A DNA stretch of 55,310 nucleotides, taken from the IMG/VR virus record IMGVR_UViG_3300023097_000001, positions 1 through 55,310 of that record. One strand, written 5' to 3'. Shown here piece after piece: positions 7,727 to 54,860 of this stretch. The notes beneath the pieces are model-generated. The model did not search any database and had not been told where the DNA came from. It saw only the letters and a list, made by a program, of their open reading frames with translations. The DNA comes from a virus. Lineage: Duplodnaviria; Caudoviricetes. Made by a program: the position numbers and the translations under genes. Position 1 is the stretch's first letter. Every line of letters begins with the position of its first letter.

Positions 7727-7799
7727 GTCACCATAGCTCAAAGGGACAGAGCAACCGCCTCCTAAGCGGAAGATCCGAGTTCGAGTCTCGGTGGTGACA
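7727..7799 (+). tRNA. tRNA-Arg(CCU)
   Basis: Full cloverleaf: GTCACCA acceptor, anticodon loop CTCCTAA, T-loop TTCGAGT; no encoded CCA. Confidence 0.92.
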
Positions 7800-7837
7800 C
7801 TCAAAAAATGAGAACACTAGACCCTAAGGGGAACACA

Positions 7838-15924: not shown

Positions 15925-16218
15925 ATGAGAGAATACCCCGAAGGTCAGTGCGACAACCCGGAGTTCCACCTCCAACACACGACATTCCTTGAGGACGAAC
16001 TGAGGACGTGTCCTGGAGTTGGTGAGGGTCAGGAGTATGTGTACCGCTTGGTTGACGAGAAGACTGGCACCCACTTGCAGGCTTACGGGGGTCAGTACGT
16101 CTACACCGAGAGGTCACAGGCTCGTGCTCAATGCACGAAGTTCAACAAGAAGTCGTGGCGAAACGAGAAGGCGGTGATTCAGCGTGGGCTCATCCAGTGG
16201 AGTACCGACCCCGTGTAG
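15925..16218 (+). CDS. hypothetical protein
   Basis: AGGAG RBS; ATGA-coupled ORF. Confidence 0.6.
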   Translation: MREYPEGQCDNPEFHLQHTTFLEDELRTCPGVGEGQEYVYRLVDEKTGTHLQAYGGQYVYTERSQARAQCTKFNKKSWRNEKAVIQRGLIQWSTDPV

Positions 16219-16456
16219 GTGTGGGTACGACGATGATGATCTGGAGTTCTGCCTGGACGGTATCGTTTACTCCGATATCTTCCGAGGTATCCAGGAGAAC
16301 GTGTGTGAATGTGACTGCCATAACCTGGTTGCTGCGGTCATTCCGATCAAGCCCAAGGTTATGGTGTGCCACGAGTGTCGGATGCACAGTGGCCACAAGA
16401 TGGACTGCACCAAGGGCCGCGTGGTCTACGAAGAGAGGGAGTTGGTAGCAGCATGA
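16184..16456 (+). CDS. Cys/His-rich Zn-binding hypothetical protein (start uncertain)
   Basis: CECDCH and CHECRMHSGHKMDC (C-x2-C-x5-H-x3-C). Confidence 0.55.
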   Translation: MGSSSGVPTPCRCGYDDDDLEFCLDGIVYSDIFRGIQENVCECDCHNLVAAVIPIKPKVMVCHECRMHSGHKMDCTKGRVVYEERELVAA

Positions 16457-46679: not shown

Positions 46680-48048
46680 TAGGATCAACCTTGCCAATCT
46701 GCTCATTGGTCTTCGCAGTACCATCAAGCAGTAGGGCATTCATCTGTGCTACCGGATCATCCTTGTCCCACTCACGCATCTGCTTGCGCTGGACATCCGA
46801 GTAACCCATTTCGATACGTGCCTGCTCCACTGGAATGATTCCAGCCTGCTGAAGCTTCACAACGCCATCGGACTTGGCCGCGAACGTTGGAGTGGAAGGA
46901 TCACGCCATACCGATTCGAGCTGGTAAGCATCCTTGGGGATTTCACCATCCATGACCAGCATCCCGAGACGCATGACATCTTCCCATGCCTGCCCGAACA
47001 TACGGGCCTTGCGTTCGGTCTTCTTTACCAGTCGCGATTCGGCCGACTTGATGGCTTCGGCACTTGCGGGGTTCTCGGATGAGAACGAGAGATACTGAGG
47101 TGGAAGACCCGTGTACGAGGCTACCTGCTTGGCAAGTTCCTGGAGGGACTCGGTAAAGTTCCGCAGATCCGCAGCAGAAAATTGCATACCCTTGCCGTTT
47201 TCGTTCTCGAACGCCAGGATGCGGGCCATGTAGGCTTCCATCGCAGCGCCGGGATTTTCAGGGTCGGTAGGTAGCTCGTCACGATCAATACCAAACAGCA
47301 CACGCTGAGGAATTGCCATCAGCTCGGAAGCAGTCTGAAGGTTCATCATGATCCGGGAAGCAGCATCCGTTGCCGAACGAAGCTCCAGGGTGATCTCAGA
47401 CTTGCCGTAAGCCTCTGTGAGGCGTTCCCGGTTCAGGAGTTGGGCAGCAAGTACCCGTCCCAAGTCGTGCTGGATAGTCTCATCGACCTTCCACTGAGCA
47501 AACGGACCACCACGGGCGAGATATACCGTCCTGTCGGGCAGGAGCAGCGTCGCCATGTCTTCCTTGGGAATCGTGGGGTGCTTGTAGAGCCTCAGTGCTT
47601 CGGTCAGCTTCTTGGTGCGCTTGTCCTGCTTCGCGATGAAATTGAACGGGGACTCCACGCGGATAATCGGGATGTCCGGGTTGTCATCGTCTTCAGCAGG
47701 GGCCGCGACCGTGATGTAGGAAACGCCATGAATCATTGCCTCAAGGTGGCCCAGTCCCGACTCGGCGTCCAGGAAGTTTGCCTGCCACCACGAGCGGAGA
47801 CGTTCGTCTACCTCTGCCTGGTCGGCATTGCGGAAATCTTCCAGGTCCAGCCTCTCTTCGAGACTGTCCAAGTACATACGAGGCCAGCCAATAGCGGCTG
47901 TCATATGACGTAGCTCTGGTGGGGTGCTCAGTCCCAGGGCCTTGAGACGGTATTCCGACTCGTAGTAGGCCTGATTCTCCTTCAACTTGCCCTTACGGCC
48001 GTTGAGTGCGTTGATCAAGTCGTCTACTGTCTTATCGTATTCGCTCAC
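46645..48048 (-). CDS. portal protein (SPP1 gp6-like)
   Basis: GWPRMY, WWQAN-x-LD, NPASAEAI and WRDPSTPT. Confidence 0.93.
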   Translation of the reverse strand: MSEYDKTVDDLINALNGRKGKLKENQAYYESEYRLKALGLSTPPELRHMTAAIGWPRMYLDSLEERLDLEDFRNADQAEVDERLRSWWQANFLDAESGLGHLEAMIHGVSYITVAAPAEDDDNPDIPIIRVESPFNFIAKQDKRTKKLTEALRLYKHPTIPKEDMATLLLPDRTVYLARGGPFAQWKVDETIQHDLGRVLAAQLLNRERLTEAYGKSEITLELRSATDAASRIMMNLQTASELMAIPQRVLFGIDRDELPTDPENPGAAMEAYMARILAFENENGKGMQFSAADLRNFTESLQELAKQVASYTGLPPQYLSFSSENPASAEAIKSAESRLVKKTERKARMFGQAWEDVMRLGMLVMDGEIPKDAYQLESVWRDPSTPTFAAKSDGVVKLQQAGIIPVEQARIEMGYSDVQRKQMREWDKDDPVAQMNALLLDGTAKTNEQIGKVDPNAANGTSQKAT

Positions 48049-49724
48049 CTTAGGATTGCCACCCCCTTCTTCTTGTTGTGCTTACCCATCAGGAACTCCT
48101 GTCGAGCCCCAAAAGCAAGAACGGCACAAACAGCAGCGTCGATCTTGCGGGAGCTGTCCTTGGTAGCCTTGCTGATGGAGATGCCAAAGTTGTTTGGACG
48201 CCGGATGGCGTTCAATACGTGGCGTCGTAGTGCTACGTCGCCGTTGTGCGTTACTTCTCGTTCCATGACCGCGTCCTGAAAGCGCTCGCAGTCGAGGGTG
48301 AAGTTCTTGATGTTGGAACGCATGTCGTATGCGATTGGGTGCTTGGCTGTAGCCTTGTGCTTCAGCTTCTTGCCGTACTTGGCTCCCCACGCATCCACAT
48401 ACGATTCGAACTCCTTGACGTCGGACCTGAACGCAACCACGTCATACTGAGCGAATGCCCAGTCAACCGTGTTGTTCACGTCTTCACGAGGAACCTCACC
48501 ACCATACTTCTCCGGGTTCCAGATCTTGATGGGGAACACAGCAGCGTCTTCGACTCGGCAAGCCACAAGGGCCGTCCAGTCCGAGGACTTACTACCATCG
48601 AATCCCATGGTGATACGGTCTCCAGGCTCAAGCCTGCGAACGTCAACCGACATGCACTTGTCCCACTCACGTGGAGAAACCCAAGCGTCTTCGGCGGCGT
48701 TGATCTGGTTCAAGAACTTACGACGCGATTCCGTGACATCTTCTCGGATGTCCAGGATGGACTGTACGATCGTTTCCGTGTCCAGCCAGTCTGCGTCACC
48801 CTTGCAGATCTCCAGGCCTTCTCGAAGCTTGTCAACCGCTGCTGCGTACGCCTCAGGGTCCTCGATCAGGTCTGCGATCTCGCCCACAGGCGTGTCTGCG
48901 GGTGCTTCCAGTGCATCGTAAAGGAATCCGTTGTCAGAAGCCTCTCCGGACTGAACAGCCTGCCACGCGTCCCAGTCTCGTTCTGCGTCGGATTCCTCAC
49001 CAGGACGGTGAGCGTTGCAGATCGAGAGAGAACGACAGGAGGCGTAAGCACCCTTGGTCACGTTGCCTCGGATGATGTTGGCCATCTCAAGACCCTGGTT
49101 GGATTCGATCCACCACTGGGTCTCATTCTTGATCACGAACGTAGGACGCTTGCCCTCAAGAGCGAGGGGGGAAGACGTTACGGACTCGATCATTCCACCC
49201 GCACGCGAGTAAATGATGGTCTTGTGGACCTCAAGCCCGAAATCTTCCTTCAGGGTCCTGGATGTCATGGCCGGAAACAGGGTAAACGTGTTTCGAGTCT
49301 GGTCCTGGGACACAGCCGCGATCTGAATCCAAGCGGACGCCTTGGGCTTACCCCTGGCCTTACCCGTCTGGGGGTCCCAATGGCTGAACTGAACAGGCCC
49401 GCAGAGTTCTGCGAGTGCCATTGCTGCGGCAAGGGGGTCCTTGCCCCATCCCTTAAGCCTACGGAGAAGCCCATTGCGGTAGATGAATCGACCCGTGTTG
49501 GGGTCGACTGCGTACCACCAGCACAGGAATCGGTACTGTTCGAATGTTACAACGAAATTATCTCCCGCATTTGGCCCGGATGGCTGAACAACATACTTCC
49601 ACATCCAGTTGACGATCTCGTCACCCAGAGTTTGTTCAGGTAGGTAGTACCCACCCGACTCGGTCTCTTGCCAGGTGGGGCCTACGATGTGGGCAGGTGC
49701 GGGAGCAAGAGTCGGCGAACCCAT
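48045..49724 (-). CDS. terL: terminase large subunit
   Basis: RLKGWGKDP, AAVSQDQT, NETQ, GFDGS-x3-DWT and KIDAAV. Confidence 0.95.
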   Translation of the reverse strand: MGSPTLAPAPAHIVGPTWQETESGGYYLPEQTLGDEIVNWMWKYVVQPSGPNAGDNFVVTFEQYRFLCWWYAVDPNTGRFIYRNGLLRRLKGWGKDPLAAAMALAELCGPVQFSHWDPQTGKARGKPKASAWIQIAAVSQDQTRNTFTLFPAMTSRTLKEDFGLEVHKTIIYSRAGGMIESVTSSPLALEGKRPTFVIKNETQWWIESNQGLEMANIIRGNVTKGAYASCRSLSICNAHRPGEESDAERDWDAWQAVQSGEASDNGFLYDALEAPADTPVGEIADLIEDPEAYAAAVDKLREGLEICKGDADWLDTETIVQSILDIREDVTESRRKFLNQINAAEDAWVSPREWDKCMSVDVRRLEPGDRITMGFDGSKSSDWTALVACRVEDAAVFPIKIWNPEKYGGEVPREDVNNTVDWAFAQYDVVAFRSDVKEFESYVDAWGAKYGKKLKHKATAKHPIAYDMRSNIKNFTLDCERFQDAVMEREVTHNGDVALRRHVLNAIRRPNNFGISISKATKDSSRKIDAAVCAVLAFGARQEFLMGKHNKKKGVAILR

Positions 49725-49736
49725 TGCGGTGCTCCC

Positions 49737-50924
49737 TTAGTTGTTGATGATGTCGATAGTGGAAGGATAAGCAGCAGACCCAAGGGTCATACCACTACCC
49801 GTTCGGTAGAGCAGCGTGAGAATCACGTTGCCCGAAACAATGTCCCCGGCCTGGACAACCCAAGTAACAGGTCGCATGGTGCGGGAATAGCCACCACCCA
49901 AGTACAGACCACCAAAGCCGTTGGCTGAAGGTGATGCGGTTCCGGTCGACTTGTAGCGGAGAACCGCGCCTGAGCCGTCAACAGCCACTAGGTCAAGTTC
50001 GTAACCCGAGTCACCAGGGTTGCAGATGACGTTGGGAATCCAGGTCAACACATTGCCGGTCGCAGCAGCAACACTCACTCGATATGCGGCCGGAGCAACA
50101 GTCCACGCACCACCACTACCCGACGATGCGGTGAAAGTGGATGTGATGAGGCCTGAAGTGGCAAAGCCCTTCAGGGTGTCGCTTGGCTTCGCGTCCAGGG
50201 CTGCCTGAAGGCCCGTGACGTTCGCAATCGTGTGGGTGTGTACCGTGTTTGCCTTACCGGCCAGACCGGAGGTCAGCGCCGTATTCGTGGCGTAATCCCC
50301 TACGTCCTGCTTTGTCGCTAGGCCATTGGACAACCCAGTGTTAGTAGCGTAGTCGCCAGACGGTTGCTTTCCGTCAAGCGCCGTGCTGAGTCCGGTGACA
50401 GATGAAATGGCGTGAGTGTGTACGAGGGCCGCGTAGCGGGCGTCGCCACGGGCGTTATTGAGGTACTGCGTATGATCGTCGTCAGCCAGTCCTGTAAGTT
50501 CACCGTGATCGGTGACTCCTTCTCCCCCACCGCCTCCGGGGACGAAGATGTTTCCGTACTGGTCGGGGAAGTGTCCATTGACGCTCCGTACTGGATCGTA
50601 GTAGTCGGGATCTGGGAGCAGCAGGCCTACCGCATCCGGCAGGTTTAGCGCTACACCTTCAACGATCTCAATGACCTTGGTAATCCGGTACAGCTCTGAG
50701 AGCCGCACGGAGACCATGTACATGCCCTCTGGGAGGGTTTGGTTCAGAACGCCTGCTGGGACGTCCACGACCGTCTTGACCGGGATTACGACCCCATCAG
50801 GGTCGTCTGGGACTTCGACGGATTCGAGAAGCAGGAACACGATGGTGCCAACAGCCAAGTCACCCTTGGGCGTGTACCACGTGCCGGTAACGGTCCCTGT
50901 GGGTACCGAGGCTGGGAGTGCCAT
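49737..50924 (-). CDS. minor tail / fibre-like structural protein placed upstream of the terminase
   Basis: VRSVNG, DHGELTGL-x-DDDH-x-QY and HTH-x-I-x2-VTGL repeats. Confidence 0.75.
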   Translation of the reverse strand: MALPASVPTGTVTGTWYTPKGDLAVGTIVFLLLESVEVPDDPDGVVIPVKTVVDVPAGVLNQTLPEGMYMVSVRLSELYRITKVIEIVEGVALNLPDAVGLLLPDPDYYDPVRSVNGHFPDQYGNIFVPGGGGGEGVTDHGELTGLADDDHTQYLNNARGDARYAALVHTHAISSVTGLSTALDGKQPSGDYATNTGLSNGLATKQDVGDYATNTALTSGLAGKANTVHTHTIANVTGLQAALDAKPSDTLKGFATSGLITSTFTASSGSGGAWTVAPAAYRVSVAAATGNVLTWIPNVICNPGDSGYELDLVAVDGSGAVLRYKSTGTASPSANGFGGLYLGGGYSRTMRPVTWVVQAGDIVSGNVILTLLYRTGSGMTLGSAAYPSTIDIINN

Positions 50925-50959
50925 CTGTTCACAACTTTCTATAGCATGTCGAATAAAAG

Positions 50960-51031
50960 TCAGGATGGGTGGGATCGAACCACCGGCCCCGCGCTTCCAA
51001 AGCGCTCACTCTACCTCTGAGCTACACCCTG
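50960..51031 (-). tRNA. tRNA-Pro(UGG)
   Basis: Cloverleaf; anticodon loop TTTGGAA. Confidence 0.88.
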
Positions 51032-51045
51032 ATTGTCTAACAAAG

Positions 51046-51117
51046 AGCCGCTACTAGGACTTGAACCCAGAACCACCCGCTTACGAGGCGGGTGCTCTTC
51101 CATTGAGCTACAACGGC
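51046..51117 (-). tRNA. tRNA-Thr(CGU)
   Basis: Cloverleaf; loop CTCGTAA. Confidence 0.9.
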
Positions 51118-51121
51118 ATTG

Positions 51122-51193
51122 CGGGGCCACGAGGTCTCGAACCTCGGACAGCTCTTTTGGAGAGAGCCGTTTTGCCTACTAAACTATGTCCCC
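51122..51193 (-). tRNA. tRNA-Trp(CCA)
   Basis: Cloverleaf; loop CTCCAAA. Confidence 0.88.
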
Positions 51194-51246
51194 TTGACTA
51201 GCAGGCGCAGAAGAAGCGCCCACAGTCCTTACACAAAAACACCATG

Positions 51247-51317
51247 CTGCCTGCCCTGGATTCGAACCAAGAACAGATGGTTCAGAGCCACCCGTGTTGC
51301 CGTTACACCAACAGGCA
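51247..51317 (-). tRNA. tRNA-Gln(CUG)
   Basis: U1-A72, loop CTCTGAA, G73. Confidence 0.9.
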
Positions 51318-51369
51318 TTGTCCGTGCACCCTCTTACGCAGGCGTCCCCACTCGCGAATACACGGATTG

Positions 51370-51441
51370 TCATCCATCCAGGATTTGAACCTGGAACCTA
51401 GAGCTTAAGAGGCCCTTGCTCTACCCTTGAGCTAATGGACG
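51370..51441 (-). tRNA. tRNA-Lys(CUU)
   Basis: Cloverleaf; loop CTCTTAA. Confidence 0.9.
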
Positions 51442-51442
51442 G

Positions 51443-51515
51443 TCGCTCGTCCTGGAATCGAACCAGGGACCTTCTACTCATCAGGTAGACGCTCTTACCA
51501 CTGAGTTAACGAGCT
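51443..51515 (-). tRNA. tRNA-Ile(GAU), atypical G37
   Basis: Cloverleaf; loop CTGATGA; 1:72 mismatch. Confidence 0.82.
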
Positions 51516-51521
51516 ATACTT

Positions 51522-51608
51522 CTACACGCAGTGACAGTTCGTCAAAGAGTCACCCGTGTTCATCTTGCCCGTACCATGACAGTCCGGGCAGTTGTACTTT
51601 GGTTTCAT
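51522..51608 (-). CDS. DnaJ-type Zn-finger microprotein (28 aa)
   Basis: MKPKYNCPDCHGTGKMNTGDSLTNCHCV; AGGAG RBS. Confidence 0.65.
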   Translation of the reverse strand: MKPKYNCPDCHGTGKMNTGDSLTNCHCV

Positions 51609-51616
51609 CGGAACTC

Positions 51617-51739
51617 CTACTCAGTGACGGTTCCGCTCCCGTGACAGGTGGGACAGACGATCTCGGTCTGACTTCCATCTGGATTACGCTGGTAAACCGT
51701 CTTTTCACCCTTGCAGGTGTAGCACTCTACTGTTGCCAT
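51617..51739 (-). CDS. DnaJ-type Zn-finger microprotein (40 aa)
   Basis: MATVECYTCKGEK...VCPTCHGSGTVTE; GAGAGG RBS. Confidence 0.7.
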   Translation of the reverse strand: MATVECYTCKGEKTVYQRNPDGSQTEIVCPTCHGSGTVTE

Positions 51740-51760
51740 TCCAACCTCTCGTACGTGGTC

Positions 51761-51832
51761 GGTAAGGACGGGACTCGAACCCGCTAAAACCGGTTTCACA
51801 AACCGGTGCCTCGGCCACTTCGGCATCCTTCC
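51761..51832 (-). tRNA. tRNA-His(GUG)
   Basis: Loop TTGTGAA, C73; the encoded -1 base is A rather than G. Confidence 0.85.
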
Positions 51833-51834
51833 TG

Positions 51835-51906
51835 CTCCCACAACTGGATTCGAACCAGTAACCCGCGCCTTAACAGGGCGCTGCTCTGCCGTTGAGCTAT
51901 ACGGGA
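51835..51906 (-). tRNA. tRNA-Asn(GUU)
   Basis: Cloverleaf; loop CTGTTAA, G73. Confidence 0.92.
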
Positions 51907-51998
51907 ATAACGTGGCCACTCGATACACTCCATAGACCGGAGCATCGCTGGACCAACGGACAGTTCCTACATGCGTGAGTGTACTGTCAACTAAACTG

Positions 51999-52074
51999 TC
52001 GCTCCTGAGGGATTCGAACCCCCGCAAACCCAGGTTCGTAGCCTGGTGCTCTGTCCGGACTGAGCTAAGAAGCG
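51999..52074 (-). tRNA. tRNA-Arg(ACG)
   Basis: Cloverleaf; loop CTACGAA. Confidence 0.9.
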
Positions 52075-52077
52075 ATA

Positions 52078-52148
52078 TTACCCGCCAGGGAATCGAACCC
52101 TGATCTCCTGGGTGTAGGCCAGGAACTCTTCCTTTGAGCTAGCAGGCA
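52078..52148 (-). tRNA. tRNA-Val(UAC), atypical C33
   Basis: Stem CCTGG/CCAGG; loop CCTACAC. Confidence 0.82.
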
Positions 52149-52151
52149 AAG

Positions 52152-52225
52152 CCGAAACGCTTGGATTTGAACCAAGAACCCGTGGCTTTTCACGCCACTG
52201 CTCTTCCAAGTTGAGCTACGTCCCG
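52152..52225 (-). tRNA. tRNA-Phe(GAA), atypical G32
   Basis: Stem GTGGC/GCCAC; loop GTGAAAA. Confidence 0.85.
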
Positions 52226-52229
52226 TTGA

Positions 52230-52303
52230 TCCCAGTTCAAGGACTCGAACCTCGAACTCCCGAGTTACAGTCAGGCCGGTTGCCAATTACCATACAAACT
52301 GGG
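52230..52303 (-). tRNA. tRNA-Tyr(GUA), no long variable arm
   Basis: Loop CTGTAAC; C1-G72, A73; 4-nt variable loop. Confidence 0.78.
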
Positions 52304-52307
52304 ATAG

Positions 52308-52382
52308 TACCCCTCCCCAGATTCGAACTGGGAACCTTCCGGGTCTGAGCCGGACGCCTCTGCCAGGTTGGGCTAGAAGGGC
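52308..52382 (-). tRNA. tRNA-Leu(CAG), no long variable arm
   Basis: Loop CTCAGAC; A73; 5-nt variable loop. Confidence 0.82.
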
Positions 52383-52458
52383 AAATACCACGTTTATCGG
52401 GCGCACCGGCCCACGGGATCGTACGATTCCCGACGCTGTCACACGTTTTACGAGGTAG

Positions 52459-52526
52459 TCGTGAGGCAGGGATTCGAACCCCACTCGTGGAGCTTATGAG
52501 ACTCCCGAGAAAACCGCATACTCACG
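52459..52526 (-). tRNA. tRNA with CAU anticodon (Met or Ile2), degenerate D-arm
   Basis: GGAGT-CTCATAA-GCTCC anticodon arm and TTCGAAT T-loop; the D region does not pair. Confidence 0.6.
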
Positions 52527-52587
52527 CTGTTCCCGTTTTGATTCCCAGACTGGATCTGAACTGGGTGGGGTCATTAGACCCTCAAAT

Positions 52588-53036
52588 CTATCGGCGTGGG
52601 CAGGAGAACATGTGTTGTCCGTTTTTGAGCCCGCAATCGGGGCACCCGTCGTCGCCTGGGGCAAACTGAATGTTACTCACCATGGCCTATTCGGGCAGGT
52701 TGGGCTGTGGTTGTCGCCTAGACCACCACACCACCTGCACTTGGTAGTCGTCACTTGTTCTCGTTCTGTAGGTCCTTGATCACGTCACACCACGAGGCGT
52801 GTACCCCGCCGCTGTTGTGGCAGGTGTCGCAGCGTTCTACGCCGTCTTCATCCTTGTACCTCAACATGCGGGCTGATCCCTATCCGGGTTGCGGATACAC
52901 CACGAAGCATGGTTGCCTCCGGAGTGTCCACATTCCCTACACTTGGTATCTGACACGTCTACTCCGTAGGACACTGACCGCCGGTCGGGCAATTCTCTAC
53001 CCGAGCACCACAGCCATCACAAATTTCTGGAGCCAC
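52588..53036 (-). other. five coupled Cys/His micro-ORFs (25-38 aa)
   Basis: 52959-53036, 52861-52956, 52751-52867, 52677-52754 and 52588-52683; the last four each carry C-x2-C-x6-H-x3-C. Confidence 0.75.
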
Positions 53037-53969
53037 TTACTTCTTCACCAATTCTACATCTAGATGTTCGATCAACGCATCTGCCAGAGCTTCAGCGTCG
53101 ACACCCCCGGAAGTAACCAGGGTCTTTAGTTCAATTACTGCTGCGGTAAGAGCGTCTACCTTCTTCTCGGTGTCTGCTGTGGTCTTACCGAGTGCTTCAC
53201 CAGACTCTACGAAGTTCTCGGCTACGACGTCGTATACCTGCGTGAAAGCAGCAGCAGGCGTGGTGCCCGTGCCCTGCTCGATACCGTCGTGCCAGTCCAG
53301 CCACTTCACCATGGCGTCGCCGAAAGGCACTCCGCGCTCGGTGTAGGTCTTGGAAACTTCGTTGTACATCTGCTGGATAAGTTCTGCTGAGGTGGCCAAT
53401 TCGTCCTCCTGGTTTAGTGCGTCTGCTCGGAACTTGTTCATATCGATCATGAGCCCCGAAGCGTAACCAGGGTCCCACTTGCCTTCTTCGCCCTTGCCGT
53501 TGACCTCACCATGACCTCGGATGTACTGGATGTTTCCACCACAGAACAGGTCGGCTACCGCCTTGGCGAACTTACCGGCGGTGATGTACTGCGCGTTGGT
53601 CATGGGCTGAGTCCCTGGATACACGATCTCCAGGCCTACGGTGTAGTAGTTCCGGTTCTGCGCGTATGGGGCCAGAGGCCCTTCGTTAGGACCGTTTCCG
53701 CCACCAGCGTGCCAGGCTAGGCCTGTGCCGATAACAGTAAGCGTCCCATCGGAGTTACCCGAGAAGTTGCAGAGCATTCCTGGAAGACCAGGACGCCCGG
53801 TTACCAGGGCTTGGAAGGCCGAACCGAAGTTCGTGCCTGTGTGATGGATGATCGCACCTCTGATGTCGATCTGGCCGATACCGTTTCCACGGCCGTACCA
53901 ACCACCCCACTCGTTGACAACGACTCCGCGCTGTCTTAGAAGCTGAACCAAATCGTAAACGTCGCTCAT
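53037..53969 (-). CDS. endolysin, N-acetylmuramoyl-L-alanine amidase (Amidase_2)
   Basis: IIHHTG, AWHAG, GLEI, GHGE and KWDPG. Confidence 0.92.
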   Translation of the reverse strand: MSDVYDLVQLLRQRGVVVNEWGGWYGRGNGIGQIDIRGAIIHHTGTNFGSAFQALVTGRPGLPGMLCNFSGNSDGTLTVIGTGLAWHAGGGNGPNEGPLAPYAQNRNYYTVGLEIVYPGTQPMTNAQYITAGKFAKAVADLFCGGNIQYIRGHGEVNGKGEEGKWDPGYASGLMIDMNKFRADALNQEDELATSAELIQQMYNEVSKTYTERGVPFGDAMVKWLDWHDGIEQGTGTTPAAAFTQVYDVVAENFVESGEALGKTTADTEKKVDALTAAVIELKTLVTSGGVDAEALADALIEHLDVELVKK

Positions 53970-54112: not shown

Positions 54113-54541
54113 TTATGCCACCTTCTGTGCACGTTCCTTGAAGTACGCAGCGATATCCGTGATCTCTGCTTCCTTACCGTCTCGCTCAACTTCGATGCGA
54201 ACACGGCGTCGATCACCTTCGGTGACCAACAGATTGGAGAGTGCGGTATTGATGGCTGCGAACATAACCGCCGAAGGCTTCTCGCCTTGGCGGAGCAACT
54301 TGTTGATGAAGTACATGACGTACCGAGCGTATTCCCAATCGGATGGTTCATAGTACTTCGCTTGTGCCGACTCCTTCAGGGAGTCGTAGAAATTCACGAC
54401 CATTGGATGTGGATCATCCAATGCCAGTGCTGGTGCGATTACCAGTCCTGCGGCTGCTAGCTTCTCGATCGGAATGACTTCGGCATTCCGACGAATCCTC
54501 TCTTCGCTGCGCTTCGGTACTGGACCGGTGATGTTAGCCAT
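54113..54541 (-). CDS. terS: terminase small subunit
   Basis: GPVPKRSEERIRRN, YYEPSDW and LLVTEGDRRRVRIEVER (cluster A type). Confidence 0.88.
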   Translation of the reverse strand: MANITGPVPKRSEERIRRNAEVIPIEKLAAAGLVIAPALALDDPHPMVVNFYDSLKESAQAKYYEPSDWEYARYVMYFINKLLRQGEKPSAVMFAAINTALSNLLVTEGDRRRVRIEVERDGKEAEITDIAAYFKERAQKVA

Positions 54542-54557: not shown

Positions 54558-54860
54558 CTATCTGGCCTTCCTGAGGCCAGGGTGTTGTTCTCTGGGTCGT
54601 TTCGTCAACCTCTTCCTTCGGAGACGTTCCCTCAAACCCTCGGAAGAGGACTTGATGGAGTGACAAGCAGCGCATACTGCTTGGAGGTTGGAAAGGTCAT
54701 GATCATCCCCTGGGATGATGTGATCTACTTCGGTTGCTCTTTGGGAGCAACCTTGGTATCGGAGTTGACATCTATGACCATCACGAACCAAAGCAGCCCT
54801 TCTCAGGGCTGCCCAGTTGGTTGGAAGATGAGAACTCCTTTGAGAGGAGTTCCAACTCAT
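54558..54860 (-). CDS. HNH endonuclease (cos packaging associated)
   Basis: RD-x3-C, EVDHI and NLQAVC-x2-CH-x2-KS; lies next to terS. Confidence 0.92.
   Translation of the reverse strand: MSWNSSQRSSHLPTNWAALRRAALVRDGHRCQLRYQGCSQRATEVDHIIPGDDHDLSNLQAVCAACHSIKSSSEGLRERLRRKRLTKRPREQHPGLRKAR

Follow-up and report, generated by a model that had tools for sequence, protein, structure and literature searches.

Tandem zinc-knuckle-type microORFs under purifying selection at the head of a phage tRNA gene array

Five tandem micro open reading frames (microORFs; ORF1–ORF5) occupy positions 53036 to 52588 on the minus strand, between the endolysin gene and a tRNA gene array, in the phage genome IMGVR_UViG_3300023097_000001; the window is this whole stretch of DNA, a complete virus record of 55,310 bp with direct terminal repeats. 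They are established on comparative evidence, short of direct detection, as genuine protein-coding genes under purifying selection and, judged from sequence, are translationally coupled. The feature was confirmed as real and conserved; the best explanation overall, to which a probability of about 0.55 is given, is that coupled zinc-knuckle genes in a mobile accessory cassette would supply binding modules for host takeover or counter-defence. An earlier sequence-only reading of this DNA had described five coupled ORFs and their peptides between the endolysin and the tRNAs, and all five were found as described.

ORF1 (52959–53036; 25 amino acids, aa) carries the four-Cys variant C-x2-C-x6-C-x5-C, and in the window its GTG start immediately follows the TAA stop codon of the lysin gene, so that the two abut. 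ORF2 (52861–52956; 31 aa) carries C-x2-C-x6-H-x3-C of an 'H-x-x-W-C' subtype; its GTG at 52956 stands 2 nucleotides (nt) past the ORF1 stop and is preceded by GGAG 5 nt upstream. The same Cys-Cys-His-Cys (CCHC) spacing was found in ORF3 (52751–52867; 38 aa; ATG start, 7-nt overlap with ORF2), which is a close paralogue of ORF2, in ORF4 (52677–52754; 25 aa; 'H-S-P-T-C' subtype; GTG start in a 4-nt GTGA overlap) and in ORF5 (52588–52683; 31 aa; 'H-M-F-S-C' subtype containing CPDCG; ATG start, 7-nt overlap), all on the minus strand. The net charges of the ORF1–ORF5 peptides are −3, 0, −3, +2 and 0, and the set was classed as neutral or acidic. In a six-frame scan of the window the exact motif C-x2-C-x6-H-x3-C occurred 4 times, in every case in one of ORF2–ORF5; the count expected per window was 0.072 from composition; in 200 block shuffles the motif occurred 0.06 times on average and never more than once. 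This is an excess of about 60-fold over chance. The contention that four ORFs of identical CCHC spacing would hardly arise by chance holds accordingly (4 observed against 0.07 expected). On the minus strand from the lysin to the array no sigma-70-like promoter or intrinsic terminator was found by what is a weak test.

Related loci, denoted by L-numbers, were retrieved with terminase bait (n = 46; identity of the large terminase, TerL, 63–94%). All five ORFs are present in L004, L048 and L049 (93% TerL identity). Between the window and L004 the five ORFs show 29 synonymous and 10 non-synonymous differences, giving a ratio of non-synonymous to synonymous differences (pN/pS) of 0.09; the shifted frames of the same DNA gave 2.49 and 2.70. 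Taken singly, ORF1 has 8 synonymous and 4 non-synonymous changes, ORF3 has 3 and 0, and ORF4 has 2 and 0. Start codons are exchanged: ORF5 begins with ATG in the window and with GTG in L004, and ORF1 begins with GTG in the window and, in L004, L048 and L049, with an ATG overlapping the lysin stop (TAATG). An ORF5 variant with an in-frame 3-nt insertion was present in one metagenome run. Genes of 15–38 codons are invisible to standard annotation; here the comparative evidence shows the whole set to be under selection. Two other ways of reading the five ORFs were tried and rejected. A TTG at 52992 could extend ORF2, and the extension frame differs from that of L004 at 3 of 13 residues, the overlapping ORF1 frame being kept; the GTG start is preferred because the TTG-extension frame is not conserved. 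Fusion of all five ORFs through serial −1 frameshifting was considered, the junctions all having a −1 offset, yet they are ordinary overlaps of 4 or 7 nt, and no slippery heptamer was seen by eye.

The exact motif was found at the syntenic place in 7 of the 46 loci, with an off-locus chance match in 1. Among 10 homologues (mean column identity 44%) the only invariant columns are C, C, H and C; the Gly after the second Cys is present in 9 of the 10, with His at that position in ORF3. Conservation of the motif had been proposed beforehand as a check on the sequence-only reading, and the Cys/His ligand pattern proved invariant across diverged homologues. Diverged copies are kept at the same place in phages of 88–89% TerL identity: three occur in L011, one of ORF2 type, one of ORF4 type (65% identical to ORF4) and a third of ORF5 type, and L043 and L047 have copies of ORF2 type and ORF5 type; the ORF2 orthologues in L011 and L043 show 53% identity. 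Three apparently old subtypes (H-x-x-W-C, H-S-P-T-C and H-M-F/L-S-C) may be recognised, their order being kept in phages of 88% TerL identity; ORF3 is probably a recent duplicate of ORF2, and ORF1 is best described as a four-Cys variant. In the third, ORF5-type ORF of L011 (L011:3938–4000) the second ligand Cys is replaced by Tyr; this ORF may be decaying or re-purposed.

The genes are subject to turnover. L044 and L009, which are equally close relatives, are without CCHC genes and have at this place an S-adenosylmethionine (SAM) methyltransferase gene, a 5-codon remnant of ORF5 and then a conserved hairpin (see below). Profile A5, the knuckle profile C-x2-C-G-x2-G-x-H-x3-C, matches only the microORF locus in the window and in 2 other complete genomes; no match was obtained in 3 more. 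Distant relatives (74–77% TerL identity) have other CCHC microORFs, with loops that are shorter or longer; in L014, L015, L018 and L019 a CCHC ORF of 20 aa stands directly before the array, and in L021 the tRNA-Lys/tRNA-Ser spacer is exactly filled by one of 26 aa. The 'H-S-P-x-C' ending of ORF4 is common to several of the CCHC microORFs of distant relatives.

The neighbour upstream of the knuckle genes is the lysin gene in the window's group and the methyltransferase gene in L011 and L043; from gene order, it is apparently the tRNA array rather than the lysin that they constantly adjoin. Identity to L004 is 50% for the lysin, 93–98% for the small terminase (TerS), TerL and portal, and about 90% for the microORFs, the lysin exchange notwithstanding. 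Contigs of related strains match through the microORFs and diverge exactly at the junction of lysin stop and ORF1 start (53035/53036), which marks a mosaic breakpoint; the contigs that span the locus in metagenome runs are those of an L004-like strain only. Scans of IMG/VR and of the JGI metagenomes with the subtype alignments A4 and A3 returned this clade only, the patterns being narrow enough to miss wider relatives. The methyltransferase (196 aa; Methyltransf_23, E 2.1e-7; L044:2790–3380) is SAM-dependent, is also present in L009, L011 and L043 and is absent from the window; in the group of 88–89% TerL identity its gene is placed between lysin and array.

An exhaustive search of 1.84 billion representatives with profile A5 gave 26 proteins at E ≤ 1e-3; the proteins matched by the profile bear P-numbers. 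The top matches are long proteins with 6–18 tandem copies of C-x2-C-G-x2-G-x-H-x3-C (2–18 copies overall), and the short ones include two-knuckle proteins of 64–128 aa as well as P0022 (77 aa), whose resemblance to the ORF2 subtype is clear. The Gly after the second Cys recurs in the repeats of P0002–P0026, and the ligand spacing and Gly positions of this uncurated repeat are identical to those of the microORFs; ORF2–ORF5 have its four-ligand spacing x2/x6/x3, and ORF1 does not (Cys for His, x5). The arrangement differs: in P0002–P0026 the knuckles are lysine-rich, fused in one chain and attached to endonuclease-like or surface domains, whereas the window has one knuckle per cistron. Many of the long proteins join the repeats to homing-endonuclease-like regions (P0003 with phrog_3339, E 2.5e-26, and with phrog_559, E 3e-27); a GIY-YIG match was obtained for 1 of 5 knuckle proteins tested and was weak (P0024, E 0.0013, below cut-off). 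For other long knuckle proteins, which contain beta-helix and VWA domains, a location at the cell surface is predicted. In P0002, P0016 and P0018, 4–6 knuckle copies lie near the N-terminus of a chain with a C-terminal anchor-like tail, an unexpected extracellular setting for a Cys/His knuckle. None of the ten A5-matched proteins looked up had a usable name (0), and the long-protein repeats matched 0 Pfam families in 9 of 10 proteins tested.

ORF3 (P0001) is the only one of the five ORFs present in protein databases (a collection of 15 billion proteins), and a word-indexed protein search with profile A5 returned ORF3 itself only. Searches of cultured phages (tblastn) with ORF3, ORF2, P0005, P0017 and the 40-aa inter-tRNA ORF described below gave nothing at E < 1 or no match. 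No match to PF00098 (zf-CCHC) was obtained for any of the five ORFs at E ≤ 10; zf-CCHC_6 (PF15288) matched ORF4 only (16.9 bits, E 0.0059, cut-off 22) and none of the other four; PF00684 (DnaJ_CXXCXGXG) matched none of ORF1–ORF5. Below cut-off there were matches of ORF1 to Fer4/Fer4_6 (4Fe-4S ferredoxin-type; 10.1–11.7 bits, E 0.27–0.75, cut-off 21–25 bits) and a weak match of ORF5 to zf-tcix (17.2 bits, cut-off 31.2). The AF2 model of ORF3 (17-row alignment, no metal; mean predicted local distance difference test, pLDDT, 71.5) shows a beta-hairpin (residues 3–5/11–13) and a helix (28–36), and as a model is compatible with a knuckle or treble-clef arrangement.

The PHROG nearest to the microORFs is phrog_7051 (37 positions, 'unknown function'), a phage family of similar size with the same knuckle. 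Matches to this family were obtained with the repeats of P0003 (E 1.1e-27) and of P0005 (E 6.4e-18), with the ORF4 orthologue of L011 (E 4.8e-4) and with the 26-aa inter-tRNA ORF of L021 (E 7.2e-4). Of the window ORFs, ORF2 was matched weakly in the library search (E 0.068) and ORF1, ORF3, ORF4 and ORF5 were not matched; searched within its own genome, ORF2 gave E 0.0047 (13.3 bits), at a loose threshold at which 13 of 14 control genomes also match.

Retroviral and CNBP-type knuckles (PF00098) have the spacing C-x2-C-x4-H-x4-C. With these the microORFs share the CCHC ligands and the single small knuckle, often in tandem, but the spacing in the window is x6/x3, PF00098 gave no match, ORF4 stays under the zf-CCHC_6 cut-off, and the peptides are not basic. 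Because spacing, PF00098 result and charge differ, an RNA-chaperone function is not transferable to the microORFs, and the analogy with retroviral RNA-chaperone knuckles drawn in the sequence-only reading had to be abandoned. T4 Stp, which has 26 residues and is involved in the conflict over the PrrC anticodon nuclease, offers a conceptual precedent, compared by description only; this phage peptide is like the microORF peptides in size and belongs to the biology of tRNA-targeting defence, and it is not known to be a Cys/His zinc peptide. Many small CxxC/CPxCG zinc-finger proteins, unevenly placed and of unknown function, are described for haloarchaea and HF1-group haloviruses in the available part of PMC7230728, and the CPDCG of ORF5 is of this kind; the halovirus proteins differ in belonging to archaeal viruses and in being mostly larger (<100 aa), and that part of the paper reports no tandem single-knuckle cistrons and no link to tRNA arrays. 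The kind is thus already known, small viral CxxC zinc-finger proteins being numerous (PMC7230728, same part) and a PHROG of the knuckle existing; what appears to be new is the run of five coupled single-knuckle cistrons, the uncurated knuckle family with its fused and split forms, and the clade-wide interleaving of zinc microORFs with tRNA genes.

The array contains 13 canonical tRNA genes (50959–52382, minus strand; ARAGORN; 13 matches to Rfam RF00005 above gathering score) and, according to ARAGORN, no tRNA-Cys. The gene that comes first in it is tRNA-like but atypical, having the anticodon CAU and a reduced D-arm (52458–52527, minus strand; ARAGORN -mt). Neither ARAGORN under default settings nor Rfam at E ≤ 1 detected this gene; counterparts were found with ARAGORN -ps80 in L004, L011, L043 and L044. 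Across these loci the anticodon arm is invariant and the acceptor and T arms differ, with a non-canonical T-loop in L004. Between ORF5 and this gene lies the hairpin CCCAG-N12-CTGGG, followed by AATCAAAACGGG (52544–52565, minus strand), which is kept in 6 of 6 aligned loci, L011 and L043 included; it is not a terminator, because it has no T-run, and may be a processing signal.

Two DnaJ-type Cys ORFs and a 15-aa Cys peptide had also been placed among the tRNAs by the sequence-only reading, and all three exist on the minus strand. A 40-aa ORF (51617–51739) with two CxxC pairs, the second being CPTCHGSG of DnaJ type, lies in the tRNA-His/tRNA-Ile spacer and has a 69% identical homologue in L004, L006, L048 and L049. 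A 28-aa ORF (51522–51608) reads CPDCHGTG...CHC, and analogous CxxCxGxG...CxC microORFs were found in the arrays of L043, L044, L009 and L008. The 15-aa ORF (51198–51245; C-x2-C-x4-C-x-C) fills the 52-nt tRNA-Gln/tRNA-Trp spacer, its ATG beginning at the first base past the 3' end of tRNA-Gln; the L004 copy has one substitution. The cysteine-rich domain of DnaJ (PF00684) is likewise a glycine-rich CxxC knuckle, and the 40-aa and 28-aa ORFs have the true CxxCxGxG (40-aa ORF against PF00684: 25.4 bits, below the cut-off of 32.7), whereas the motif of the five ORFs is CxxCGxxG, shifted by one position and with His as a ligand.

Spacers were surveyed as gaps of 60–700 nt between tRNAs in 14 non-redundant loci of the clade: spacer ORFs on the coding strand contain 34 CxxC motifs and 6.8% Cys, those on the opposite strand 1 CxxC motif and 3.0% Cys. 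In 14 array-bearing loci, Cys microORFs counted anywhere upstream of TerL number 47 for the coding strand and 13 for the opposite strand; in 9 array-poor loci (0–4 tRNAs) the figures are 9 and 12. Many of the inter-tRNA Cys microORFs start 0–19 nt past a tRNA 3' end; in five, the start is 0–1 nt past the upstream tRNA (51198–51245 of the window; L021:3711–3791; L014:3821–3907; L015:4447–4512; L018:3642–3761), and tRNA processing would therefore leave leaderless micro-mRNAs ('tRNA punctuation'). Outside the clade, seven unrelated arrays of cultured phages (GodonK, pSt2308, Stella, Magritte, Big4, Moby and RcXuper) contained no CxxC spacer ORF of ≤60 aa; their CxxC spacer ORFs are five in number and 88–180 aa long, and 3 of the 5 are annotated HNH genes (GodonK, Magritte, Big4). 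A general, phage-wide module of tRNAs plus zinc fingers was rejected on the strength of these seven arrays, and the tRNA link is for the same reason clade-specific. The linkage proposed in the sequence-only reading is therefore retained for this clade, in which Cys microORFs stand at the head of the array and inside it, and not as a general rule. Two 99-aa HNH-type ORFs were seen inserted between tRNA genes in L015 (2546–2845 and 3561–3860).

A text search of the literature, confined to the articles proper and not their supplementary files, gave no account of phage tRNA arrays interspersed with genes for zinc microproteins, nor of coupled single-knuckle cistrons or of the knuckle family in fused and split forms; a term search of the phage tRNA paper PMC10264068 gave, in the portion of the text it covered, no mention of interspersed ORFs. 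The suggestion that the module is undescribed survives for this interleaving; it does not for the knuckle itself, which is a widespread uncurated repeat with a near PHROG, phrog_7051.

According to the preferred explanation, each ORF would code for one small domain of zinc-knuckle type, with CxxC on a beta-hairpin and H-x3-C where a short helix begins; at 25–38 residues a peptide could hardly fold without bound metal, and one zinc per peptide is presumed. Lying between the genes for the two terminase subunits, the microORFs, the hairpin, the atypical tRNA(CAU) and the tRNA array make up a cargo cassette that recombines as a unit and is gained, trimmed or lost between close relatives; expression would probably proceed from the TerS-lysin (lysis/packaging) transcript. 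The zinc-stabilised modules would most probably act by binding macromolecules of the host or the phage during host takeover or counter-defence, and the peptides would be accessory partners of the tRNA array, itself keeping translation going. The retention of three subtypes as orthologues points to distinct, non-redundant partners, and gain and loss at a hypervariable cargo position next to tRNAs are in keeping with accessory binders serving host takeover or counter-defence; recent work regards tRNA arrays as counter-defence loci (PMC13096335, in its available part). As a functional class taken as a whole, such binders are proposed tentatively, at odds somewhat below even.

Several results weigh against this explanation. 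No known anti-defence protein was matched, no search aimed at such proteins having been made, and counter-defence is suggested by location and turnover. For ORF1–ORF5 Pfam gave nothing above cut-off; the best match of the PDB sequence profile had E 0.093 and covered a generic CxxCG only; Foldseek with the fold model against PDB gave nothing at E ≤ 0.001; the wide VIA-align search reached Z 2.1 at best, with none ≥2.2; and the best ESM Atlas score, 0.85, is below the useful range. Because Pfam, PDB sequences and ESM Atlas yielded nothing significant, function is read from context alone. The fold model of ORF3 is of moderate confidence only and has no significant structural neighbour, and no RNA run containing the locus was found. 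In L012, L045 and L046 the arrays are large and Cys microORFs are few or absent, and the comparisons within the clade are phylogenetically non-independent, representing roughly five lineages.

The peptides might instead be directed at tRNA, either binding phage tRNAs and their precursors (chaperoning, protection) or inhibiting host tRNA-cleaving defence nucleases, which would explain their travel with the array. They adjoin it constantly though the upstream gene varies (lysin, or methyltransferase in L011 and L043); throughout the clade Cys microORFs occupy the gaps between tRNAs; a guilt-by-association precedent is given by RNA-related genes in other phage arrays (Ro-like, RtcB-like, peptidyl-tRNA hydrolase); and phage tRNAs have been proposed or shown to counter tRNA-targeting defences (available parts of PMC10264068 and PMC13096335). 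Such a role is nevertheless considered unlikely: a net charge of −3 to +2 is unlike that of basic RNA chaperones, the spacing is unlike that of retroviral knuckles and PF00098 gave no match, the seven unrelated arrays are without such ORFs, the array persists in L044 and L009 although the CCHC genes are missing there, and the link to the array may be simple co-inheritance. Slightly more doubtful still is a function as DNA-binding modules akin to the homing-endonuclease-like knuckle arrays, whether as small regulators or as shields of the tRNA-array DNA from homing nucleases. The best profile matches are indeed long proteins with 6–18 knuckle copies, P0003 matches homing/HNH endonuclease PHROGs, P0024 shows the weak GIY-YIG match below cut-off, HNH genes lie inside the arrays of L015 and of cultured phages, and SegB is described as cutting within T-even tRNA genes (PMC13096335, available part); the endonuclease-linked knuckles are lysine-rich, however, whereas those of the window are not basic, the knuckle also occurs in beta-helix/VWA surface proteins and so appears to be a general scaffold rather than DNA-specific, and no nuclease domain is found near the five ORFs.

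It is very improbable that the act of translation itself is what matters, the Cys-codon-rich leader ORFs sensing charged tRNA-Cys or keeping ribosomes on the transcript and so preventing premature termination before the array. The coupling is tight from the lysin through the five cistrons to about 60 nt from the first tRNA-like gene, and Cys-codon stalling on small ORFs is reportedly known in mycobacteria; but His and Gly are conserved as strictly as Cys, purifying selection acts at the amino-acid level over whole ORFs, the three subtypes are kept as orthologues across groups, the same motif is a domain inside long proteins, and the array has no tRNA-Cys. Slightly less probable still is the idea of zinc handling linked to lysis, with peptides that deliver or buffer zinc for the coupled amidase endolysin, which is presumably zinc-dependent: stop and start abut at the Amidase_2 lysin in the window, L004, L048 and L049, but in L011 and L043 it is the methyltransferase gene, and no lysin gene, that precedes the knuckle genes, and the lysin has been exchanged (50% identity) with microORFs still about 90% identical. 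Least probable of all is that the ORFs arose by chance or are remnants of decaying genes with no function. Their extreme shortness, their absence from L044 and L009 and the loss of a ligand Cys in one L011 copy would speak for it; against this stand pN/pS of 0.09 in frame and >2 in the other frames, a motif about 60-fold over chance, and conservation across phages of 88% TerL identity.

A more specific proposal, in which microproteins and tRNA array form one 'tRNA-punctuated' operon with leaderless micro-mRNAs, the knuckle peptides neutralising tRNA- or translation-targeting defences and the phage tRNAs replacing losses, is improbable as matters stand; if true, the operon would be a two-layer counter-defence cassette not yet described. 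The locus provides a test bed for what would be a minimal metal-folded domain, occurring both as stand-alone cistrons and in long repeat arrays, and for a lineage whose tRNA arrays are physically interspersed with zinc microprotein genes. Should the link to tRNA conflict be true, a protein layer would be added to the view of phage tRNA arrays as counter-defence cargo; should it not, the locus still documents an uncurated zinc-knuckle family deserving a curated model.

The right end of the genome reads, on the minus strand, HNH endonuclease (54558–54860), small terminase (54113–54541), Amidase_2 endolysin (53037–53969), the five microORFs, the 13 tRNA genes, a 395-aa tail-fibre-like protein, large terminase (48045–49724) and portal. 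The endolysin is an N-acetylmuramoyl-L-alanine amidase (Pfam Amidase_2, E 7.7e-13; phrog_880 endolysin, E 6.5e-32), and its weak relatives are actinophage lysins; a search of IMG/VR with the endolysin as bait gave no locus. At the DNA level cultured phages were matched by one terminase segment only (71–78% identity to Gordonia phages), and blastn of the microORF locus against cultured phages gave no match. DNA of the window is present in metagenome runs from soil and leaf litter.

The 395-aa protein (49737–50924, minus strand) contains a phage tail repeat (PTR, E 2.8e-10) and matches tail-fibre PHROGs; for a tail-type gene, the place between the tRNA array and the large terminase is an odd one. 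Among relatives this protein is 43–58% identical over its full length and up to 82% over partial matches. Elsewhere in the window, an ORF of 105 aa (16131–16448, plus strand) contains C-x2-C-x4-H-x3-C and has no Pfam or PHROG match, and an open frame of 49 aa around 30425 (plus strand) contains C-x2-C-x9-H-x5-C. A lone tRNA-Arg(CCT) gene was located at 7727–7800 on the plus strand, opposite to and distant from the array.

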